This document shows, piece after piece, positions 6,238 through 14,732 of a stretch of DNA of 64,000 nt (position 1 is the first letter of the stretch; each line of letters starts with the position of its first letter). The stretch covers positions 1-64,000 of the IMG/VR virus record IMGVR_UViG_3300032893_000009; one strand, written 5' to 3'. The notes below the pieces were generated by a model that saw nothing but the letters and a program-made list of their open reading frames with translations, was not told the origin of the DNA and made no database searches. The position numbers were made by a program, and so were the translations under genes. Source of the DNA: a virus.

Positions 6238-9200
6238 ATGAGCCTGTCACCCACCCACGGAACGCTTGGCGGGGCATCCCCGTTCGATTTCGAGGCACTA
6301 CGGGACCAGATCATACAGGCCTTCAACCCTGATCAGCCCCGGGTTCCGGCAGGCAACCCCGGAGGCGGTGAATTTGCCAAGGGCGGCGCTCTCAGCGACA
6401 CCGAGATCGAGCGCAGGCTGAAAGCCCCCTCTCTGCCCAACCTGTTCAAGCAGCCCTCAAGCGCCCCATCTTCCCAGCGCAGCTCCACGCCCGAGGAACA
6501 GGCGGCGCGCATCCAGCAGGTGAAGGACAAGGCCAGCAGCGACCCCGAGTGGCACAATGCCGCGCAGGCGGTGGGTGCGCGCGGCGAGCACCGTGACGAC
6601 CCCGGGGTGATGAAGGATGGGCTGTATACGCCATCCGCGCAGGCCGAGAACGACAGGATCGCCAGCGAGTTTCTGACGTCTGCAGCACAGTCTCGCAGTG
6701 GAGAGCAGCCGGTGGCGGTCTTTCTGGTGGGCAAGCCGGGGGCAGGCAAGAGCGGTTTGATTGCCAAGCTGCAGGCGCGCGGTGATCTGCCTCCCACCGT
6801 GCCCATCAATGCTGATCTGGTGCAGGAGAAGTTGCCGGGATACACGCCCGGATTGACGGCGGCCTATCACGAGCGGGCCTGCGACATCGCCCGCAACTGT
6901 CTGACGCCTGCCGTGCTGGCCGGGCGCTACAACGCCTACTTCGACACCACCGACGGGGCCGACCGGCTGGAGAAGACCGCCCGGCAGTTCAAGGATGCCG
7001 GTTACCACATCGTTGTGGTTCATGCCGACGTGGACACCGCGACGTCGGTGGAACGTGTCTACAATAGATTCAGGCAGGATGGCCGCTACATTCCGCTGGA
7101 TATTGTCGAGGGCTACGGCGAGAAACCCAAGAATGCCTATGAGCGGCTGAAGGCCAGCGGCCTTGCCGACGAGTGGAGGGAATATGACACAACAGCCGAG
7201 GGATTTGCTGGAGGCCAATCTGTCGGACAGCCAGCGCGAGTTGTGGAGAAAGGCGCGCGCAGTTCCCGGCAAATACTCAGCCGATCCCGAGGAAGCGTGG
7301 GAGCAGGCGCTGCAGGAAGGGGCCGAGCTGGGAGCCGCGATATTGCGCGAAGGGCAAGGGCCGCCCAAGCCCGCGTAGCCCTGCTCGCCGCCTGCAACGA
7401 GTGGGGCATCCTTGGCGACGGTGAACCCGAGATCACCTCCTACAATCCAGATCAAGCGCGCGACAGTGCTGGGAAGTGGACATCTGGTGGCAGTGAACCC
7501 GAGTCGTGGGTAGGTTTTGATCTGGACGGCACGCTGGCTGAGTACCACGGCTGGAAAGGGTCGGATCACATAGGCGCACCCATCCCCCAGATGGTGCGGA
7601 TTATCAAGAAGCATCTGGCCGACGGCGACAAGGTGAAAATCTTCACCGCCCGGGTGGCCAACGATCCCAAGGGCGTCGCCAAGCAAGCCATTGAAAAGTG
7701 GTGCGTGCAGCACCTCGGCCAGAAGCTGCCGGTCACCTGTGTCAAGGACAGCGGCATGACCATGCTGTACGACGACCGCGCCGTGGCCGTGGTGCGCAAC
7801 GACGGCACGCTGCTCAACGATCCTAGCGAGATTGAGGCCAAGTGCGTCGCCTGTGAGTGTGGCGACTGCGTGATTCATGCCTATAGCGAGGATGAGGCCC
7901 GTGACGAGCATGGCCGCTGGACTGCAGGCATGGAGGAGAATCTGGCTGTCATGTCGCGCACCAGCCATGGCACCGGGCGGGAACCCGACCGTCCGGCACT
8001 AGCGGAGAGCGGCGACGCGCTGGCGGAGAAGGCCAACCAGAACTTCCGCGAGGCTGCCGACTGGGTGTGGCAGCACCGCGACCAGAAGCTGGATTCCGGC
8101 GCGACTGTGCGCCACACTATCGAGAAGCTGGGCAGCATCGTGAACCAAGGCCTGCTGGCTCCCGGGCAGAGCCCGTGGCGGACGTGGAACGATTCGGCCA
8201 AAGGCTACATCCCGGTGGAGAGGATGATGCCCCGGCTCTATCAGTTCTGCGACCAGCTGGCTGCGCGCATGAAGGCTGGCGACGATCCCAAGAGCACCGC
8301 CGCCTTTGTAGAACACGAGTTCAATGCCGAGATTCATCCGCTGGCCGACGGTATGGGCCGCACCACCATGCTGCTGGCGGGGATGACCTTGCTGCAGAAT
8401 GGCCACGAGCTGCCCCGCTATGGCGACCGGGCGGCCTTCTACAAGGGCATCACGTCGCCCGGCTGGGAGGGCTTCTACCACAGCCTGTTCGGGGTGCAGG
8501 CCTTCAGCCCCGACGAGGCCCGGGATGCCTACGGCAGGTGGACGACGGGCGGCGATGTGTATGTCTCGCCCAACGTGGAGGAAAACACCAAGTTCGACGA
8601 GGCCGTGAAGCAGGTGGACAGCGACCGGCAGAAGAACTTCGTCAGTCTAGCGCACCGGGTCTGTGAGGCGGTATTGGGACAGAGCGAGGTGAACAATGCG
8701 GTGGGCGCATGGGCCGACGGCGCGGAAAACTCCACCCACATCACCAGCCACACCGATAATGTCGAGGACCTGAAGTATGCCGGGGCGCTGCTGGCCAAGG
8801 CTGCTCAGCAGAAGGCCTTCCTGTGGTTCAGGCACGACCCGGCGGGCGGCTCGCTGCTCTACACCATTCGGACGGAAGAGGATTTGTCTACAATAGAGAA
8901 GCGCGTCCGGGGTGTCGCCGCTCTGGAGAACCACACCCTCGTGCCTCATTCGTGGGGCACCGAGATACAGGTGTTCGACAAGGACGGTTCTTCAGCGGAG
9001 GCCATCGGCGCATTTTCCGCCGCCCATGGTTACCGGACGACGGCGGCCCGGGGAGAGGGCAATTTCGAGGGCAGCTGGACCAGCCGCGAGGAAGGAGCGA
9101 AGGAATATGACCGAATCATCCAAGACTACGAAGAAGCCCACCCCGGAAGAGCTTACCGCGATTCTCTTACGTTTCAACATCGAGGACGTGACGAAGAAGG

Positions 9201-9798
9201 GCACGGGAGTGGTGATCGTGGGCGGAGTGAAGCCGCCCGAAAAGAAGGGCTGAGCCTCAGTCTCAGCGCGCACATCTACGCCGCCGTTCCTCCCAGCGAG
9301 GTGTTGCGCCGGGTGCGGGCACTGCCTACGGTGCCCGCTCCTAAAAGTCCGCATTGGTCCGCCCTGTGCCGGACCAAGGCTCGCCACTACGGCAAGTCGG
9401 TGTGGAAGAAAAATCCCATCAAGCTGGTGCGCAAGCCTGCCGACGCCGAGGCTTTCAAGCTGCTGCCGGTCAAGCTGCGCGATCATCTGGTCAGCGCCGC
9501 GCCCGTACAGAGGTTCAACCCCCGCGATCTGGTGACCAACCAGCCAGTGGTTTATCTGGCCGACCTCGAACACTTTCTGCGCCACGGCAAGGACCCCGAG
9601 CCGGTAATCGTGCTCAGGAGCAGCGCCGGGTTGTATGTTCACAACGGCAACCACCGCAGTACACTGGCATTGCTGTCCGGGCACAAGGTGCGGGCGCGCT
9701 ACGTGGACCTCGCCAAGGTTCCCGAGGTGCAGAACAGGATCAAGGTGGCGGCCAACATTCTCGACGCGAAGGAAGCCCTTCAGGAGGTGGGTGTATGA
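6238..9798 (+). CDS. Polyvalent effector polyprotein: zeta-toxin kinase + HAD phosphatase + Fic + unknown (SAM-lyase-like) + ParB-like
   Basis: GKPGAGKS/INAD (zeta-like P-loop), GFDLDGTLA...YDDR (HAD), HPLADGMGR (Fic-like), VHNGNHR (ParB/Srx-like). Four [FY][NS]xD[QE]xR..G.[WF] tags. Confidence 0.85.
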   Translation: MSLSPTHGTLGGASPFDFEALRDQIIQAFNPDQPRVPAGNPGGGEFAKGGALSDTEIERRLKAPSLPNLFKQPSSAPSSQRSSTPEEQAARIQQVKDKASSDPEWHNAAQAVGARGEHRDDPGVMKDGLYTPSAQAENDRIASEFLTSAAQSRSGEQPVAVFLVGKPGAGKSGLIAKLQARGDLPPTVPINADLVQEKLPGYTPGLTAAYHERACDIARNCLTPAVLAGRYNAYFDTTDGADRLEKTARQFKDAGYHIVVVHADVDTATSVERVYNRFRQDGRYIPLDIVEGYGEKPKNAYERLKASGLADEWREYDTTAEGFAGGQSVGQPARVVEKGARSSRQILSRSRGSVGAGAAGRGRAGSRDIARRARAAQARVALLAACNEWGILGDGEPEITSYNPDQARDSAGKWTSGGSEPESWVGFDLDGTLAEYHGWKGSDHIGAPIPQMVRIIKKHLADGDKVKIFTARVANDPKGVAKQAIEKWCVQHLGQKLPVTCVKDSGMTMLYDDRAVAVVRNDGTLLNDPSEIEAKCVACECGDCVIHAYSEDEARDEHGRWTAGMEENLAVMSRTSHGTGREPDRPALAESGDALAEKANQNFREAADWVWQHRDQKLDSGATVRHTIEKLGSIVNQGLLAPGQSPWRTWNDSAKGYIPVERMMPRLYQFCDQLAARMKAGDDPKSTAAFVEHEFNAEIHPLADGMGRTTMLLAGMTLLQNGHELPRYGDRAAFYKGITSPGWEGFYHSLFGVQAFSPDEARDAYGRWTTGGDVYVSPNVEENTKFDEAVKQVDSDRQKNFVSLAHRVCEAVLGQSEVNNAVGAWADGAENSTHITSHTDNVEDLKYAGALLAKAAQQKAFLWFRHDPAGGSLLYTIRTEEDLSTIEKRVRGVAALENHTLVPHSWGTEIQVFDKDGSSAEAIGAFSAAHGYRTTAARGEGNFEGSWTSREEGAKEYDRIIQDYEEAHPGRAYRDSLTFQHRGRDEEGHGSGDRGRSEAARKEGLSLSLSAHIYAAVPPSEVLRRVRALPTVPAPKSPHWSALCRTKARHYGKSVWKKNPIKLVRKPADAEAFKLLPVKLRDHLVSAAPVQRFNPRDLVTNQPVVYLADLEHFLRHGKDPEPVIVLRSSAGLYVHNGNHRSTLALLSGHKVRARYVDLAKVPEVQNRIKVAANILDAKEALQEVGV
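7184..7378 (+). CDS. Nested +1-frame 64-aa protein, candidate zeta-domain antitoxin
   Basis: GGAGG RBS then ATG. MTQQPRDLLEANLSDSQRELWRKA...PEEAWEQALQEGAELG reads as amphipathic helices, while the host frame here is R/G/A-rich low complexity. Confidence 0.55.
   Translation: MTQQPRDLLEANLSDSQRELWRKARAVPGKYSADPEEAWEQALQEGAELGAAILREGQGPPKPA
9107..9253 (+). CDS. Nested +1-frame 48-aa protein, candidate antitoxin/partner
   Basis: aaggag..aagga RBS and the same GGAATATGAC start context as 7184. Sequence MTESSKTTKKPTPEELTAILLRFNIEDVTKKGTGVVIVGGVKPPEKKG. Confidence 0.55.
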   Translation: MTESSKTTKKPTPEELTAILLRFNIEDVTKKGTGVVIVGGVKPPEKKG

Positions 9799-12700
9799 GC
9801 CTGCTGTCTCTGGCGATTCAGGAGCTGGCCGACACCATGGAGATGCACGCCTCCGCCTACGTGATCTATGCGTGGAACGAGGAGGATCACCCCCGCGACG
9901 CGCACGGCAAGTTTGCCACCAAGGGCGGCACCGCCGCCGTGAACACCCCTGACAAGGCTGCCGCGCGGCTGGCCAATCTCGGCTACCGGCTGGACGAGGC
10001 CAAGCAAAGCTCCGATGTGTGGCGGGATCAGCGGGGGCGCACGGTGCGGGTATCGAAGTACGATGCGCAGCACCCCGGCAATGTCAACCTTCGCCGCTAC
10101 CGGATGTTCGGCCCGGATGGCGAGAGGCTGTATCAGGGCCACCAGCTGCCTGAGCTGGAGCGGTTGCACGGCAAGCAGCCGCCAGCCCCGCCACAGGCCC
10201 CTGCCGCCCCGGCAAAGCAGGTTGTGGCACCGGCTCCCAAGGCCCCCGCTCCGGCTGCCCCGGCGCAGAACGCTCTGGCCAAGCAGGCCGCCGCCGTGGT
10301 CAGCCTTGCCATGCAGAAGAAGCTGGCCGACGCAGGCTTTGCCCTGAAGGGCATGGTGGACCCCGCACAAGTAATGGGCGGACGGGCAGTGGTGGCCTTC
10401 GTGCATCCCTCCGGTGCCGAGCTGCGAATTTCCACCAATGCTGAGGGCAAGACGATCTATCAGATTTCCATAGGCAGGGACGAGCAGGGCAAACTCCGGC
10501 TGGCCCCCGCGCAGCTGCACAGGCCTTTTGGTGCCGACGGCCAGCTGCGCCCGGATATTCAGTGGGCTCTCAGCAAGCCGCCTGCCGGGCTCACCCAAGC
10601 GCCGGTCAAGCGTGGCGACGCTCCGCCGGAAGGCACCCTGCATGAGAGAGCGCACAATGCTCTGATCGCCGCAGGCTTTGTTTACAAGGGCACCCTTAAC
10701 AAGCGGGCCTATTACGCTCTGCCTGACAAGAATGTGTTTGTCCTTGCCTCTGACCGCCGTGACGATTCTGTGTACAAGGATGGCAAGAACATCACCTACG
10801 CCGCACTCGATCAGGGCATGTTCCTGTTCCGGCGAAACAAACAAGGCAATACTTACCTGCCCAACACCTTCCGCGACGCAGTTGGCCTGCCGCGCAATCC
10901 AGTTGGCGTGATAGACGAGCAGAAGGGCTATGAACTGGCATTTCCCAGAGCCGAGGATCGGGCCGCGCTGGACAAGGCCGGGTTCACCGTAACCAAGGCC
11001 GAGAGCGACGAGGCGGGCAATGTCTCGATTGTGCTGACCCATCCCAGCGGAGTGAGGATCGAAAAGGGCGCTAGTATGTATGCCCGTGTCTTTGATAAAG
11101 ACGGCAAGGACATGGGGCAGATAACCGGGGTGCGCGACCAATTCGGCTACTTGTACAAGGGCATTCGCCAAGCCATCGGCATGCCCGATCCCGACTTGAG
11201 AATGCCCACAGCCAAGCCCGCCGACGAAACAGAACCGGAGTGGCGATATGAGCGTGGGGCGCATAGCGTGCTGGTGGGTGCTGGCATACAGTACATGGGC
11301 ATGGGCCGCGACAAGGACGGGAACACTTATGCAAGTTACAAGGCCCCCAACGGAACGCGCCTGCAGATGTTTGCCGACCGGGGCGCGGTGGCCTTTGACA
11401 AAGACGGCAATCAGGTGGGGAGGTGGCTTAACGGCGCAGCCATCTATGGCTCAAACAGGCAGGGCAATTATTATCTGCGCCCCGAATTCCGTACCGCCAT
11501 GGGCCTCCCCAAGCCACAGTTCACTGGCGACGCGCAGGCTGAGTTCAACAGACTGGTTGACAGAGAGGATCAGAAGGCGCTGGCCGACGCCGGGTTCAAG
11601 CTGGATCGTGTGGAGCTGAATGACAAGGAAGAACCCTACGCGATGCTGACGCATCCGAGCGGCGTCACGATGCGCTACAACGGTAATGACTACATTCTTG
11701 AAAAGGGAGGTCAACCCATTGCCGGACCCAACAGGCACCTTGCAGACAACTTCGGTTTTGTGAACAAGGACATCCGGCAGGCCATCGGCATGCCCGACCC
11801 CGACTTACGCATCCCCACTGCGAAGCCTCCGAGTGCAGCCGACGAGCCACCTTACGAGTTGATCGGCAGCATACGCATGAAGCAGGCAATGCTAAGCAAC
11901 GGCTTCGTCTATCAGGGTGTGGGCCGGGACAAGGACGGCTGGCAGTATGCCAAGTACACCGGTCCCAACGGGGTGACGCTGCGGGCCACGGCCAGCCCAG
12001 ATAACGGGTACAAGGCCAAGGGCTACGACAAGGACGGCAATCTGCTGGGCGAGTGGGGCAAGGTCTACGACCGCAACCGGTTCAACAATGGCTATCTGAT
12101 TCCCGAGGTGCGCAAGGCGCTGGGTGTCCCCCTCCCTGCTTATAGGGGAGGGATGGTGCCGGACGCTGTTCTCAGAACCCTGATCAATTCTGACGCCCGC
12201 AATGCCCTGATCGGGGCTGGATTCGTAGTCAGCCATGTAACGATGAACGACAAGGAAGAGCCTACGGTGGTCCTCACTCACCCCAACGGCGTGCAGATGA
12301 TCATAGACGGCGATGGCTACAAACTGCAGCACGGGTCGCAGGCCGGTCCACGCGACGGCATGGGAATGATGCTGGACAAGTTTGGCTTCCTGAACAAGGA
12401 AATCCGTCAGGCTGCTGGACTGCCGGAGCCGGACCTGAAGCTGCCCACGCAGATAGTGAGGTCGATGCCCAACGTCATCTCCGGTGGGCTGAAAGACGCG
12501 CTGAAGAATGCAGGCTTTGTTCTGCAGGGCGTGGGCCGTGACAAGGATGGCGTGGACTACGCCAAGTTCCTGCACCCCACGGGTGCGGTGGTAAGGATTG
12601 ACGAGAACAAGAACATCTACGTGACCCCTCCGGGCGGCAAGGAAGTGCAGTTTCCCGATCAGCATCCCTACGAGCGCGACGCCAAGAACATTCCGAATCT

Positions 12701-13589
12701 GAAGATTGGCCTGCGCGAGGCTGCCGGAATGCCGACGTGGTGGCTGTCCGCCCCCGGCACCTCGGATATTCCCCAGCCGGTCATTCCGCCCCGGGTTCCG
12801 GCCCCCGTGGTGCCCAGTGAGTCGGTACAGCCCGATCTGCCTATACCCGATCTTCCGCCGCGCGACCCGTCAATTGCGATTGAGAAGGCGCTGTCCACAG
12901 GCCAATCCACCGGGAACAAGAACGCACGCGGCGGCATCAACGCCCTGTACAAGATCAATGTGGCCGGAGTCGGGGAGTGCGGCTTCAAGCCTAATAATGG
13001 GGAAGACACACGCTGTGCGCAGTGCTGGGCTGTCGAGGGCGACGCGGGCGCGCAGGCCAAGCGCGAGGTGGCGGCTTGGCAGATCGCCAAGATGGTGGGG
13101 ATGCGGGATTTGATGGCCCCCCGCGCCATGCGCGAGCACGACGGGGAGCTCGGGGTTGTTTTTCCTTGGACCCCGGGAGAAGTGGCAGGCAATGTCAGCG
13201 CGTCCAAGCGTTTCGACGGCGAGCAGGATTGCGCGCGCTGCGCGGCTTACGACTACGTGGTGGCCGACGGCGACCGGCACAGTAACAACTGGCTCATACA
13301 GGACGATGCTTCAGAGCCCAAAATTCAGCTCATCGATCACGGGCTGATCATTCCCAACGACGACAAGATGAACAGCACACAGGGATTTCTTGCCGAGATG
13401 ATGGACGCGCAGGAACCGGGTCTGCGGCCCTACGAAATGGCGCAGCCCTTTGTGGACAAGAAAAACGACATCATCACCTATCTCGCCAATCAGGGATTCA
13501 GCAAAGAGGCGATTCATGGCGTGGCGGTGCGTATCGATGATTTGGCTCGGGCCAAGCAATGGAACGACCTGAAGTATAAGGCTTGGTAG
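9795..13589 (+). CDS. Head-cargo protein with eight ~100-aa repeats and a C-terminal HipA/PI3-PI4K-like kinase
   Basis: Start at the ATGA overlap with GGAGG RBS. WNEEDHPRDAHGKF tag; LxxAGF...HPxG repeats; FKP..E, REVAAW, DRHSNN and IDHGL kinase motifs. Confidence 0.8.
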   Translation: MSLLSLAIQELADTMEMHASAYVIYAWNEEDHPRDAHGKFATKGGTAAVNTPDKAAARLANLGYRLDEAKQSSDVWRDQRGRTVRVSKYDAQHPGNVNLRRYRMFGPDGERLYQGHQLPELERLHGKQPPAPPQAPAAPAKQVVAPAPKAPAPAAPAQNALAKQAAAVVSLAMQKKLADAGFALKGMVDPAQVMGGRAVVAFVHPSGAELRISTNAEGKTIYQISIGRDEQGKLRLAPAQLHRPFGADGQLRPDIQWALSKPPAGLTQAPVKRGDAPPEGTLHERAHNALIAAGFVYKGTLNKRAYYALPDKNVFVLASDRRDDSVYKDGKNITYAALDQGMFLFRRNKQGNTYLPNTFRDAVGLPRNPVGVIDEQKGYELAFPRAEDRAALDKAGFTVTKAESDEAGNVSIVLTHPSGVRIEKGASMYARVFDKDGKDMGQITGVRDQFGYLYKGIRQAIGMPDPDLRMPTAKPADETEPEWRYERGAHSVLVGAGIQYMGMGRDKDGNTYASYKAPNGTRLQMFADRGAVAFDKDGNQVGRWLNGAAIYGSNRQGNYYLRPEFRTAMGLPKPQFTGDAQAEFNRLVDREDQKALADAGFKLDRVELNDKEEPYAMLTHPSGVTMRYNGNDYILEKGGQPIAGPNRHLADNFGFVNKDIRQAIGMPDPDLRIPTAKPPSAADEPPYELIGSIRMKQAMLSNGFVYQGVGRDKDGWQYAKYTGPNGVTLRATASPDNGYKAKGYDKDGNLLGEWGKVYDRNRFNNGYLIPEVRKALGVPLPAYRGGMVPDAVLRTLINSDARNALIGAGFVVSHVTMNDKEEPTVVLTHPNGVQMIIDGDGYKLQHGSQAGPRDGMGMMLDKFGFLNKEIRQAAGLPEPDLKLPTQIVRSMPNVISGGLKDALKNAGFVLQGVGRDKDGVDYAKFLHPTGAVVRIDENKNIYVTPPGGKEVQFPDQHPYERDAKNIPNLKIGLREAAGMPTWWLSAPGTSDIPQPVIPPRVPAPVVPSESVQPDLPIPDLPPRDPSIAIEKALSTGQSTGNKNARGGINALYKINVAGVGECGFKPNNGEDTRCAQCWAVEGDAGAQAKREVAAWQIAKMVGMRDLMAPRAMREHDGELGVVFPWTPGEVAGNVSASKRFDGEQDCARCAAYDYVVADGDRHSNNWLIQDDASEPKIQLIDHGLIIPNDDKMNSTQGFLAEMMDAQEPGLRPYEMAQPFVDKKNDIITYLANQGFSKEAIHGVAVRIDDLARAKQWNDLKYKAW

Positions 13590-13604: not shown

Positions 13605-14732
13605 ATGGATTTAAACTGCATCTTCTACGTCACGCATTTCGACGGGAAGCGGGTCACCCAAGTTCCCGAGGCGAAGGTCATGCTGCGCGGCAGCAGCATC
13701 ACCGGGCTCGCGCTCAATTCCCACTTCGACGTGGATGACTTTATACGGGACCCGCTGCGCATCGGGAGCATTGCCATTCCGAAGAGCGATCCTGTGGCGT
13801 GGATGCGGGCGCTGCCCCATGTCTACGGCGGCAGCTACCTGCGCGCCGAATTGCGGGACGCGAATGGCAAGCCGGTCAGTGGGGAGGGCGACTTTGATCC
13901 CGGCGGCGCGCTGTACAAGTACCTGCCCAAGGAGCCTGTGCCTGCCAGCGTGGTGAGAGCTGCTGAAGCTGCTGTCGAGGTGGAGATGCAGCGCACTGCC
14001 AAGAACCTCGACGCAGTATCGCCTCCCGGCTGGCGGGGAACGACCGAGCACATGAAGGATCACCCGGAGATCACCAATCCATATGCTCTGGCGTGGTGGC
14101 AATACAAACGCGGCGAGACCTCGCACGTGGACGAGCCACCGGCCACCCCCAAGGTGCATGTGAGCAGGAAGACCGCAAAGGCGCGGCAGAAGTCGCTCGC
14201 CAAGAAAAAGGTGAAGAGCGCCGCCGACGGACTCGGCCCCGGTGCGATCCTGCGCAACTCAATCCGTGAGAAGGCGCTGGGAGTGGCTGCCAAGGCCTAC
14301 AAGCTGTCCGGCTGCACCTCGTTCCAAGGCCTGCCCATCAGCATCGAGACCAAGAAGGGCGAGCGGCGCAGCGGCACCAACCACGACGGCACGCCGTGGA
14401 GCGTGCTCATGCCCGCCGACTACGGCTACATCAAGGGCACCAAGGGCGTGGATGGCGACGAGGTGGACTGCTTCATCGGCCCGCACAAGGATGCCAAGTT
14501 CGCCTACATCTTTCACATCGAGAACGACGCCGATCACTCTTATGACGAGGACAAATGTTTTCTCGGTTACAAGTCCGATGAGGAGGCCATGGTGGTGGCC
14601 AAGCAGGCCTACGACAACTGGGACAAGATATACCGCTCCACCACCATGCTGCCTATGTGGGAGTTCACTCAGAAGGTTTTGCATACCGGCGAACTGAAGA
14701 AGCCGGGTAAGATACACGCGGGGGCACTATGA
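13605..14732 (+). CDS. Multi-domain protein with C-terminal inorganic pyrophosphatase-like (InPase) domain
   Basis: ISIE..KG..RSG...W...M.ADYGYI.GT.G.DGDEVDCFIGP...DEDK motif of polyvalent-protein InPase. Separate ~85-aa N-domain ending LPHVYGGSYLRA. Confidence 0.75.
   Translation: MDLNCIFYVTHFDGKRVTQVPEAKVMLRGSSITGLALNSHFDVDDFIRDPLRIGSIAIPKSDPVAWMRALPHVYGGSYLRAELRDANGKPVSGEGDFDPGGALYKYLPKEPVPASVVRAAEAAVEVEMQRTAKNLDAVSPPGWRGTTEHMKDHPEITNPYALAWWQYKRGETSHVDEPPATPKVHVSRKTAKARQKSLAKKKVKSAADGLGPGAILRNSIREKALGVAAKAYKLSGCTSFQGLPISIETKKGERRSGTNHDGTPWSVLMPADYGYIKGTKGVDGDEVDCFIGPHKDAKFAYIFHIENDADHSYDEDKCFLGYKSDEEAMVVAKQAYDNWDKIYRSTTMLPMWEFTQKVLHTGELKKPGKIHAGAL

Follow-up and report, generated by a model that had tools for sequence, protein, structure and literature searches.

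Does a phage that builds a toxin-like kinase into a large multi-effector protein also encode, within the same coding sequence, the protein that restrains this kinase? The question is raised by the first 64,000 nucleotides (nt) of IMG/VR virus record IMGVR_UViG_3300032893_000009 (the window, as this whole stretch is called here), a complete record of 118,881 bp with direct terminal repeats. In the window, a 64-residue open reading frame (ORF) lies in the +1 frame immediately behind the zeta/PezT-like kinase domain of a 1186-residue protein, whose longer reading frame is referred to as the host ORF. A preliminary description, made from the sequence alone, had noted a GGAGG and an ATG in the +1 frame at the end of the zeta domain, had taken the nested product to be helical and the host frame across it to be a degenerate linker, and had proposed comparison of the two frames in homologs, a search for stand-alone homologues downstream of zeta genes and modelling of the peptide with the zeta domain. 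The explanation favoured here, with modest confidence, is that a nested gene with its own start makes a 64-residue zeta-binding inhibitor of the polyvalent kinase. The anatomy of this gene, the conservation of its start and frame, the shift of constraint between the frames and the family membership come from direct comparison, and the binding comes from a structural model.

The nested ATG at position 7184 straddles host codons Y316-D317 of an E-Y-D motif, just past the Pfam Zeta_toxin match, which ends at host residue 312, and it is preceded by a Shine-Dalgarno-like GGAGG that is provided by host codons for W-R. Both signals lie exactly where the preliminary description had placed them. The ORF is contained wholly inside a longer ORF in another frame and has its own apparent start signals, an arrangement that defines a candidate nested gene. 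The window sequence recurs without differences in contigs from three DNA sequencing runs, one of which may be its source and another of which has a contig spanning positions 7283–7900, including the nested stop; no RNA run was among those listed. ORFs of this size are common in such DNA (83 ORFs of at least 60 residues in the first 16 kb, at 60% GC), and the case for a nested gene therefore rests on comparison and not on the ORF itself. The same count is what speaks for a chance open frame in GC-rich coding DNA; the shared start and core, the frame-specific selection, the family matches and the codon choice described below refute that explanation as far as sequence can show, and hardly any credence is left for it.

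Protein and locus searches yielded four further contigs with the same zeta subfamily, giving five loci in total: the window, L001, L002, L006, and L007. Four others (L003, L004, L005, and L008) are second copies of the L001 or L002 contigs and were not counted. In all five loci a +1 ORF opens from an ATG inside the invariant zeta motif R-E-Y-D, and the small ORFs share the core G.YS..P..W.Q...EG, so that start, frame and core motif are all conserved among the homologs. The arrangements behind this start differ. In L006 and L007, the zeta ORF ends 18 codons past R-E-Y-D and the small ORF, of 64 residues, stands alone while overlapping the zeta 3′ end, which supplies the stand-alone homologues that had been sought. 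In L002, the zeta ORF also stops and the small ORF runs on in its own frame through a module-boundary motif and more domains to 299 residues, heading the next polyvalent gene. In the window and in L001, which encodes a 1725-residue polyprotein of ∼52% identity, the zeta frame lacks a stop and continues through the small ORF. Two further relatives, P0006 and P0007, have zeta as the last domain.

The zeta stop of the relatives falls ∼18–20 codons after the shared ATG, at different codons in L002 and in L006/L007. It was considered whether a change silent in the +1 frame had removed this stop; the idea was dropped because the window and L001 are one codon shorter there and the stops of the relatives lie at different codons. 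As far as can be read from these arrangements, the stand-alone state most likely came first and gave rise to the nested one, the zeta stop being lost and its frame joined to the modules downstream; the direction is drawn from the lack of constraint on the host frame and not from a rooted tree. In L007 (510–3571), zeta is a separate 295-residue gene with a boundary-type motif near its N-terminus, directly behind a 601-residue MuF-like head-morphogenesis protein, and is followed by the 64-residue partner and then by an 81-residue coiled-coil-like ORF. By its gene order, L007 is the simplest form of the zeta/partner pair.

The start region carries a signal of its own. The kinase dictates the host residues W-R-E-Y-D and leaves their codons free, so that codon choice informs on the nested start. 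The Tyr of R-E-Y-D is encoded by TAT in all five loci, although TAT accounts for 0.28–0.50 of the Tyr codons in these ORFs. The Arg of W-R-E-Y-D is AGG or AGA in all five, giving GGAGG or GGAGA, while AGR codons make up only 16–23% of Arg codons. The products of the codon shares are ∼0.007 for TAT and ∼0.0003 for AGR on the assumption of independent lineages; the lineages are only partly independent, with synonymous sites between them near saturation. L002 and L006 have no alternative in-frame start upstream of the shared ATG. Five members of the small-protein family are known from protein sequence alone (P0017, P0018, P0019, P0021, and P0022), and four of these begin with MT or MI, as the same start context would give.

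These observations bear on whether ribosomes instead shift from the zeta frame into the +1 frame by programmed frameshifting, which would make the small product a helical C-terminal extension folding back on the kinase. Frameshifting would suit the way in which the conserved parts adjoin, conservation passing from the host frame, where it reaches the last strand, to the +1 frame in the residues that follow, and it would also suit the unconstrained first 24 residues of the peptide. However, no slippery site shared between the two groups is visible by eye near the junction, the frame-0 stops differ between L002 and L006/L007 and are missing from the window and L001, and the +1 frame is open from the ATG in all five loci, with the MT/MI starts of the protein-only members pointing the same way. 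The ATG and GGAG are kept by rare codons 56–62 nt upstream of the junction, which only an initiation site would explain. Frameshifting is accordingly regarded as very improbable, and initiation at the nested ATG is taken as the working explanation.

The frame-specific selection tests compared the window with L001, the two loci in the nested state, using the rates (dN, dS) and proportions (pN, pS) of nonsynonymous and synonymous change. Over nested codons 1–24, which overlie the last β-hairpin of the zeta domain, the host frame has dN/dS of 0.58/1.60 and the nested frame 0.77/0.66; here the host frame is the constrained one. Over the following 23-codon core, the nested frame has pN 0.277 and pS 0.673 and the host frame pN 0.371 and pS 0.298, and the constraint has passed to the nested frame. 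In this core 26 of 69 bases differ, 13 of these 26 at nested third positions; the nested-frame dS is 1.7, a saturated value, against a dN of 0.35. The two nested products are identical at 13 of 23 core positions and the host frames at 6 of 23. When the same number of differences was scattered at random, thirteen nested identities came up in 33 of 20000 trials; a null that preserved the base changes gave as many in 48 of 20000. Purifying selection on the nested frame is therefore indicated for these 23 codons in the one nested-state pair, and for the family alignment overall. Over the last 17 nested codons neither frame is conserved. The comparison of frames in homologs thus gives a handover of constraint, from the host frame over codons 1–24 to the nested frame over the core.

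The host frame across the nested ORF reads SRSRGSVGAGAAGRGRAGSR, and 82% of its residues 341–379 are R, A, S, or G, in keeping with the degenerate composition that had been described. A near-identical G/R-rich string is found in frame 0 of L002 and L006, where it lies behind stop codons and is hence untranslated. Host-frame conservation returns directly after the nested stop (A[RK]VALL.A.NE.G[IV]L). The recurrence of the string in untranslated form, together with the lack of host-frame constraint (pN/pS 0.37/0.30), marks the host linker as an out-of-frame shadow of the small gene, which bears out the earlier proposal that the long frame reads through the small gene as a linker. In all, ∼190 nt would be coding in two frames.

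The small protein has relatives beyond the five loci. An exhaustive profile search of 1.84 billion representative proteins returned 10 matches at E ≤ 0.001, eight of which form the family: P0013, P0014, P0017, P0018, P0019, P0021, and P0022, of 44–73 residues, and the 299-residue fusion P0015. The remaining two, P0016 and P0020, are repeat proteins that were judged false and left out. P0015 is the cluster representative of the L002 ORF itself and was omitted from the family alignment, A5. In a 10-row family alignment M1, G29, Y31, P35, W39, E45, and G46 are invariant, and the window copy has all of them. By alignment, the nested protein belongs to a new family of small proteins that pairs with this zeta subfamily.

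Other searches delimit this family. The window peptide is absent from a collection of 15 billion proteins. As sole query against viral contigs it found no relative, and P0018 and P0021 as queries against the same contigs gave no match; alignment A5 retrieved the L001 contig only, in a search whose confirmation step used the first sequence only and which missed L002 although it is in the collection. The zeta alignment gave no match among genome contigs. Searches with tblastn of 50,697 phage records gave no match to the window peptide or P0022, and with the first 521 residues of the host protein only distant zeta matches (25–30% identity) and matches to the HAD-like module. The peptide had no significant match in PHROGs, Pfam, or PADLOC; the best Pfam match of the 10 family members had an E-value of 0.03, to an unrelated family. 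A profile of five peptides had 0 matches at E ≤ 10 among 177635 PDB sequences, a library that includes the AvrRxo1 complex entries 4z8q, 4z8t, 4z8u, and 4z8v. First matches in the Atlas scored 0.81 or lower and were not used. Alignment of the family with the N-terminal leader of the polyprotein by hhalign (probability 0.1) gave no sign of a relation.

Taken with the conserved start, the nested-frame constraint and these family members, the sequence comparisons make it very probable that the nested ORF is a real functional gene. What its product would act on is suggested by the domain in which it begins. Host residues 152–312 match Pfam PF06414 Zeta_toxin with 68.9 bits (curated cut-off 22.3), and a Walker A motif, GKPGAGKS, occupies residues 165–172 (6730–6753). 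In a profile alignment with the PDB structures of PezT and zeta, Asp193 (6814–6816) aligns with the second Asp of the zeta motif IDND, the catalytic residue Asp67, whose PezT equivalent is Asp66 (PMC3062530). The domain was modelled with a mean predicted local distance difference test (pLDDT) value of 87.1, and the top 12 Foldseek matches of the model are zeta, PezT, and AvrRxo1 (query-normalised template modelling score, TMq, 0.59–0.65), all of them toxins solved together with small antitoxins. The terminal β-hairpin spans host residues 312–340, strands 213–218 and 235–241 of the model corresponding to host residues 312–317 and 334–340. By Pfam match, Walker A motif, aligned catalytic Asp, and modelled fold, the host domain belongs to the zeta toxin/PezT kinase family. 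That the kinase is toxic and is delivered by the virion is presumed.

The peptide alone is predicted to form helices at residues 5–11, 15–25, and 35–57 (mean pLDDT 71.5), consistent with the helical product anticipated for it. The complex of the peptide with the zeta domain was predicted from purpose-made five-row alignments for each chain. The score was 0.89 (0.89, 0.89, and 0.90 in the three runs), compared with 0.02 for the best of three controls; 58 of 80 solved complexes pass the score mark used, as do 2 of 110 mismatched pairs, and these rates are only a rough guide here because the alignments were purpose-made. The runs share at least 95% of contacts, and the pLDDT of the partner is at least 81. 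On the peptide side, the predicted interface contains all six invariant residues of the core (G29, Y31, P35, W39, E45, and G46). On the kinase side it is formed by the N-terminal helix region R119–L146, I190 and A192 beside Asp193, the helix A208–G229, and the stretches F235–G240 and R243–A254. The last of these stretches align roughly, by an approximate mapping on the model, with the region of zeta that binds UDP-N-acetylglucosamine (UDP-GlcNAc, or UNAG), for which Glu100, Arg120, and Thr128 have been described (PMC3062530). The predicted site suggests occlusion of the substrate cleft and not of the nucleotide site. Complex modelling, which had also been proposed, thus supports binding in silico, and the peptide probably binds the zeta domain.

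Several observations weigh against reading the nested ORF as a working inhibitor gene. The selection tests cover 23 codons and essentially one independent nested-state pair (the window and L001); between these two, the peptide lacks conservation over its first 24 and its last 17 residues, so that only ∼22 residues would carry function; and the 4-nt spacer between GGAGG and ATG is short in comparison with other gene starts of the phage. In L002 the module is fused to further protein, which suits a general binding module equally well as an inhibitor. The predicted interface does not include the P-loop (residues 165–172) and overlaps only partially with the site of epsilon, which contacts zeta at residues 8–25, 43–58, 149–165, and 67–75 (PMC4963854); the mode of inhibition would accordingly differ from the known epsilon mode. 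Finally, the high complex score may partly reflect likeness to solved toxin–antitoxin complexes, and the five-row alignments were in the same order for both chains.

Some of these points would suit a relic, in which the small ORF lost its role in the window once the zeta frame was read through and its likeness to the family is a leftover or reflects some other constraint on the DNA. The freely diverged peptide ends and the short spacer fit such a relic, as do the presence of the nested state in only two genomes and the fact that the peptide has never been called as a gene. But the core has been kept since the window and L001 split (shared stop position; 26/69 bases different; dS 1.7, dN 0.35), the ATG, the GGAGG, and the six invariant residues are retained in both, and the host frame shows no constraint able to explain the conservation of the core. 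A relic is judged improbable.

Other points bear on what the small protein does. It could be a true partner of zeta without being an inhibitor: a folding or packaging chaperone, a capsid adaptor, an activator, or a structural subunit without which the kinase fold is incomplete. Predicted binding says nothing on its consequence, and the uncovered P-loop fits such a partner, as does L002, where the module forms the N-terminus of the 299-residue protein and is followed by the boundary motif in a tether-like manner. Partners of the Arc1 type are also described as both chaperone and antitoxin (bioRxiv 10.1101/2023.12.02.569727). On the other hand, the predicted site runs along the cleft beside the catalytic Asp and over residues aligned with the UNAG region, which suits occlusion, and small inhibitors control all of the nearest relatives of the domain that have been solved. 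A partner of this non-inhibitory kind is considered rather unlikely, though a serious contender, and the evidence leans toward the nested protein being an inhibitor of the zeta kinase.

The inhibitor reading can be set beside known toxin–antitoxin pairs. As in epsilon/zeta and PezA/PezT, the kinase is of the same family and fold, with a P-loop and an aligned catalytic Asp, and a small helical protein that is encoded beside it is here predicted to bind it. The nested peptide, however, has no sequence likeness to epsilon or PezA in PDB and Pfam searches. The epsilon and PezA genes lie upstream of the toxin, whereas the small gene starts inside the zeta 3′ end in all five loci; epsilon uses a P-loop helix and the site predicted here covers the substrate cleft; and epsilon/zeta is an addiction module, while the present toxin is a module of a phage polyvalent protein. 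EzeT of E. coli is reportedly a zeta toxin with a cis-acting, in-frame N-terminal antitoxin domain. It resembles the present case in having toxin and inhibitor in one coding unit, but the inhibitor here would be a separate product of another frame. In phage lambda, Rz1 is a small +1-frame gene wholly inside the longer Rz gene, with its own start, and the two products cooperate. The present overlap differs in that the outer frame is a functionless linker over most of its length, and in that it would stem from read-through of a pre-existing small gene and not from a new gene inside an old one.

The zeta-like kinase AvrRxo1-ORF1 has its small antitoxin/chaperone gene, Arc1 (AvrRxo1-ORF2), directly downstream (PMC4938570). 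A small ORF directly downstream of a zeta-like kinase gene is shared with the present pair, and AvrRxo1 is among the top structural matches of the domain. The AvrRxo1 kinase is delivered into another cell and Arc1 acts in the producer; delivery of the present kinase is only presumed. Arc1 has 98 residues and a gene free of overlap, the AvrRxo1 kinase is delivered by type III secretion, and the nested peptide has no sequence likeness to Arc1 among PDB sequences. AvrRxo1:Arc1 nevertheless provides a precedent for a small antitoxin gene downstream of an exported zeta-like kinase. For polyvalent proteins, a zeta-toxin-like kinase has been proposed to act on cell-wall precursors at injection (PMC5512222), and the proteins of Iyer et al. 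2017 likewise combine a multi-effector polypeptide encoded among virion genes with a zeta-like kinase. The article text of Iyer et al. 2017 (PMC5512222) that was covered describes no inhibitor or nested gene for such a kinase, and small ORFs might be shown in its supplementary architectures; a search of literature listings found no report of either for the zeta domain of a polyvalent protein.

Put together, the mechanism that we infer would run as follows. Late in infection, the polyprotein mRNA would be translated in frame 0, and the internal Shine-Dalgarno sequence and ATG within the codons of the last β-hairpin would yield the 64-residue protein from the same mRNA, beside the emerging kinase. 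This protein would bind the kinase across the cleft beside the catalytic Asp and silence it in the phage-producing cell, in the manner of an antitoxin or immunity protein. The polyprotein, encoded in a head-gene neighbourhood, would be packed into the virion and delivered without its inhibitor. In this lineage the zeta frame would have lost its stop, and the small gene, read in the other frame, would join the kinase to the modules behind it as a linker under no constraint. The scheme is conjectural in four respects: that the nested ORF is translated, that its product inhibits the kinase, that the kinase is toxic, and that the virion delivers it.

Table 1. Window coordinates of the host ORF, its kinase domain and the putative nested gene.
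Feature	Position	Strand	Basis or remark
Host ORF, 1186-residue polyvalent (multi-effector) protein	6238..9798	+	ORF list, Pfam, PHROGs
Zeta/PezT-like kinase domain, host residues 100–340	6535..7257	+	Pfam, PDB profile alignment, model, Foldseek
Shine-Dalgarno-like GGAGG, from host codons W-R (TGG AGG)	7175..7179	+	4 nt ahead of nested ATG
Putative nested +1-frame gene, 64 residues	7184..7378	+	ORF list, comparison with relatives
Nested codons 1–24, over last zeta β-hairpin	7184..7255	+	host frame constrained, not nested frame
Host-frame 'linker', residues 341–379	7258..7374	+	82% R/A/S/G; no sign of own constraint
Nested core, residues 26–48, RAVPGKYSADPEEAWEQALQEGA, with start of predicted helix 35–57 and G29, Y31, P35, W39, E45, G46	7259..7327	+	pN/pS, family alignment, model
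Nested TAG stop, across host codons Val-Ala (GTA GCC)	7376..7378	+	L001 stop at homologous position

The host ORF consists of an N-terminal leader, the zeta-like kinase, a HAD-like module (PHROGs match at residues 424–494), a weak Fic-like module, an unassigned module, and a C-terminus labelled ParB-like by eye and homologue alignment only. The Fic-like module (residues 660–715, 8215–8382; motif HPLADGMGRTTM) has a Pfam E-value of 0.046 and scores 15 bits, below the cut-off of 24; L001 conserves this stretch well. Genes near the host ORF match a minor head protein, a head-tail adaptor, a DarB-like protein, and an HNH endonuclease. With several unrelated effector domains in one polypeptide and virion genes around it, the host ORF is by its composition and setting what Iyer et al. 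2017 (PMC5512222) call a phage polyvalent protein. The next gene (9795–13589) has an ATG at 9795 that overlaps the host-ORF stop, and encodes about eight repeats of ∼100 residues and a C-terminus that matches PI3_PI4_kinase just below the Pfam cut-off (26.0 versus 27.1 bits, E 1e-5). The C-terminal half of the 13605–14732 product matches domains of minor head and DarB-like antirestriction proteins (PHROG E 1e-14 to 1e-25), which is consistent with a block of virion-packed effectors. A boundary motif, [FYW]-[NS]-[PE]-[DE]-x-x-R-[DSV]-x-x-G-[RKE]-[WF], stands ahead of each module in the window polyproteins (6322, 7441, 7882, 8503, and 9873) and is also found in all relatives (P0004–P0007, L002, and L007), including at the N-termini of separate genes. 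It is a candidate cleavage or packaging signal.

A second nested +1-frame ORF of 48 residues lies within the host ORF at window positions 9107–9253, and its ATG, too, falls in host codons for E-Y-D (GGAATATGAC). L001 (about 7397–7550) preserves the +1 frame of this ORF (EDVT.KG..VVIVGGV) and has a G/R/D-rich host frame there, and P0026, a stand-alone metagenomic protein of 61 residues, is 80% identical to its product. On this sequence evidence, it seems to be another genuine nested gene, behind a different module.

The enzymes of polyvalent proteins should harm any cell in which they are folded, and the covered text of PMC5512222 does not say how the producing cell escapes this. An inhibitor gene inside the coding sequence of the effector itself, if true, would answer this for one module, and the small proteins would form a family of zeta-kinase antitoxins unrelated in sequence to epsilon, PezA, and Arc1. 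The locus also illustrates clearly how, in nature, loss of a stop can fuse genes and turn one of them, read out of frame, into a protein linker. Gene callers miss nested genes, and with a second case in the same ORF their number seems to be underestimated. It is possible, if somewhat short of probable, that a presumed virion-delivered kinase effector here carries its own immunity gene overprinted on it, that this lineage built its polyprotein by wrong-frame read-through of partner genes, and that nested immunity genes may be general, though unannotated, in polyvalent proteins.

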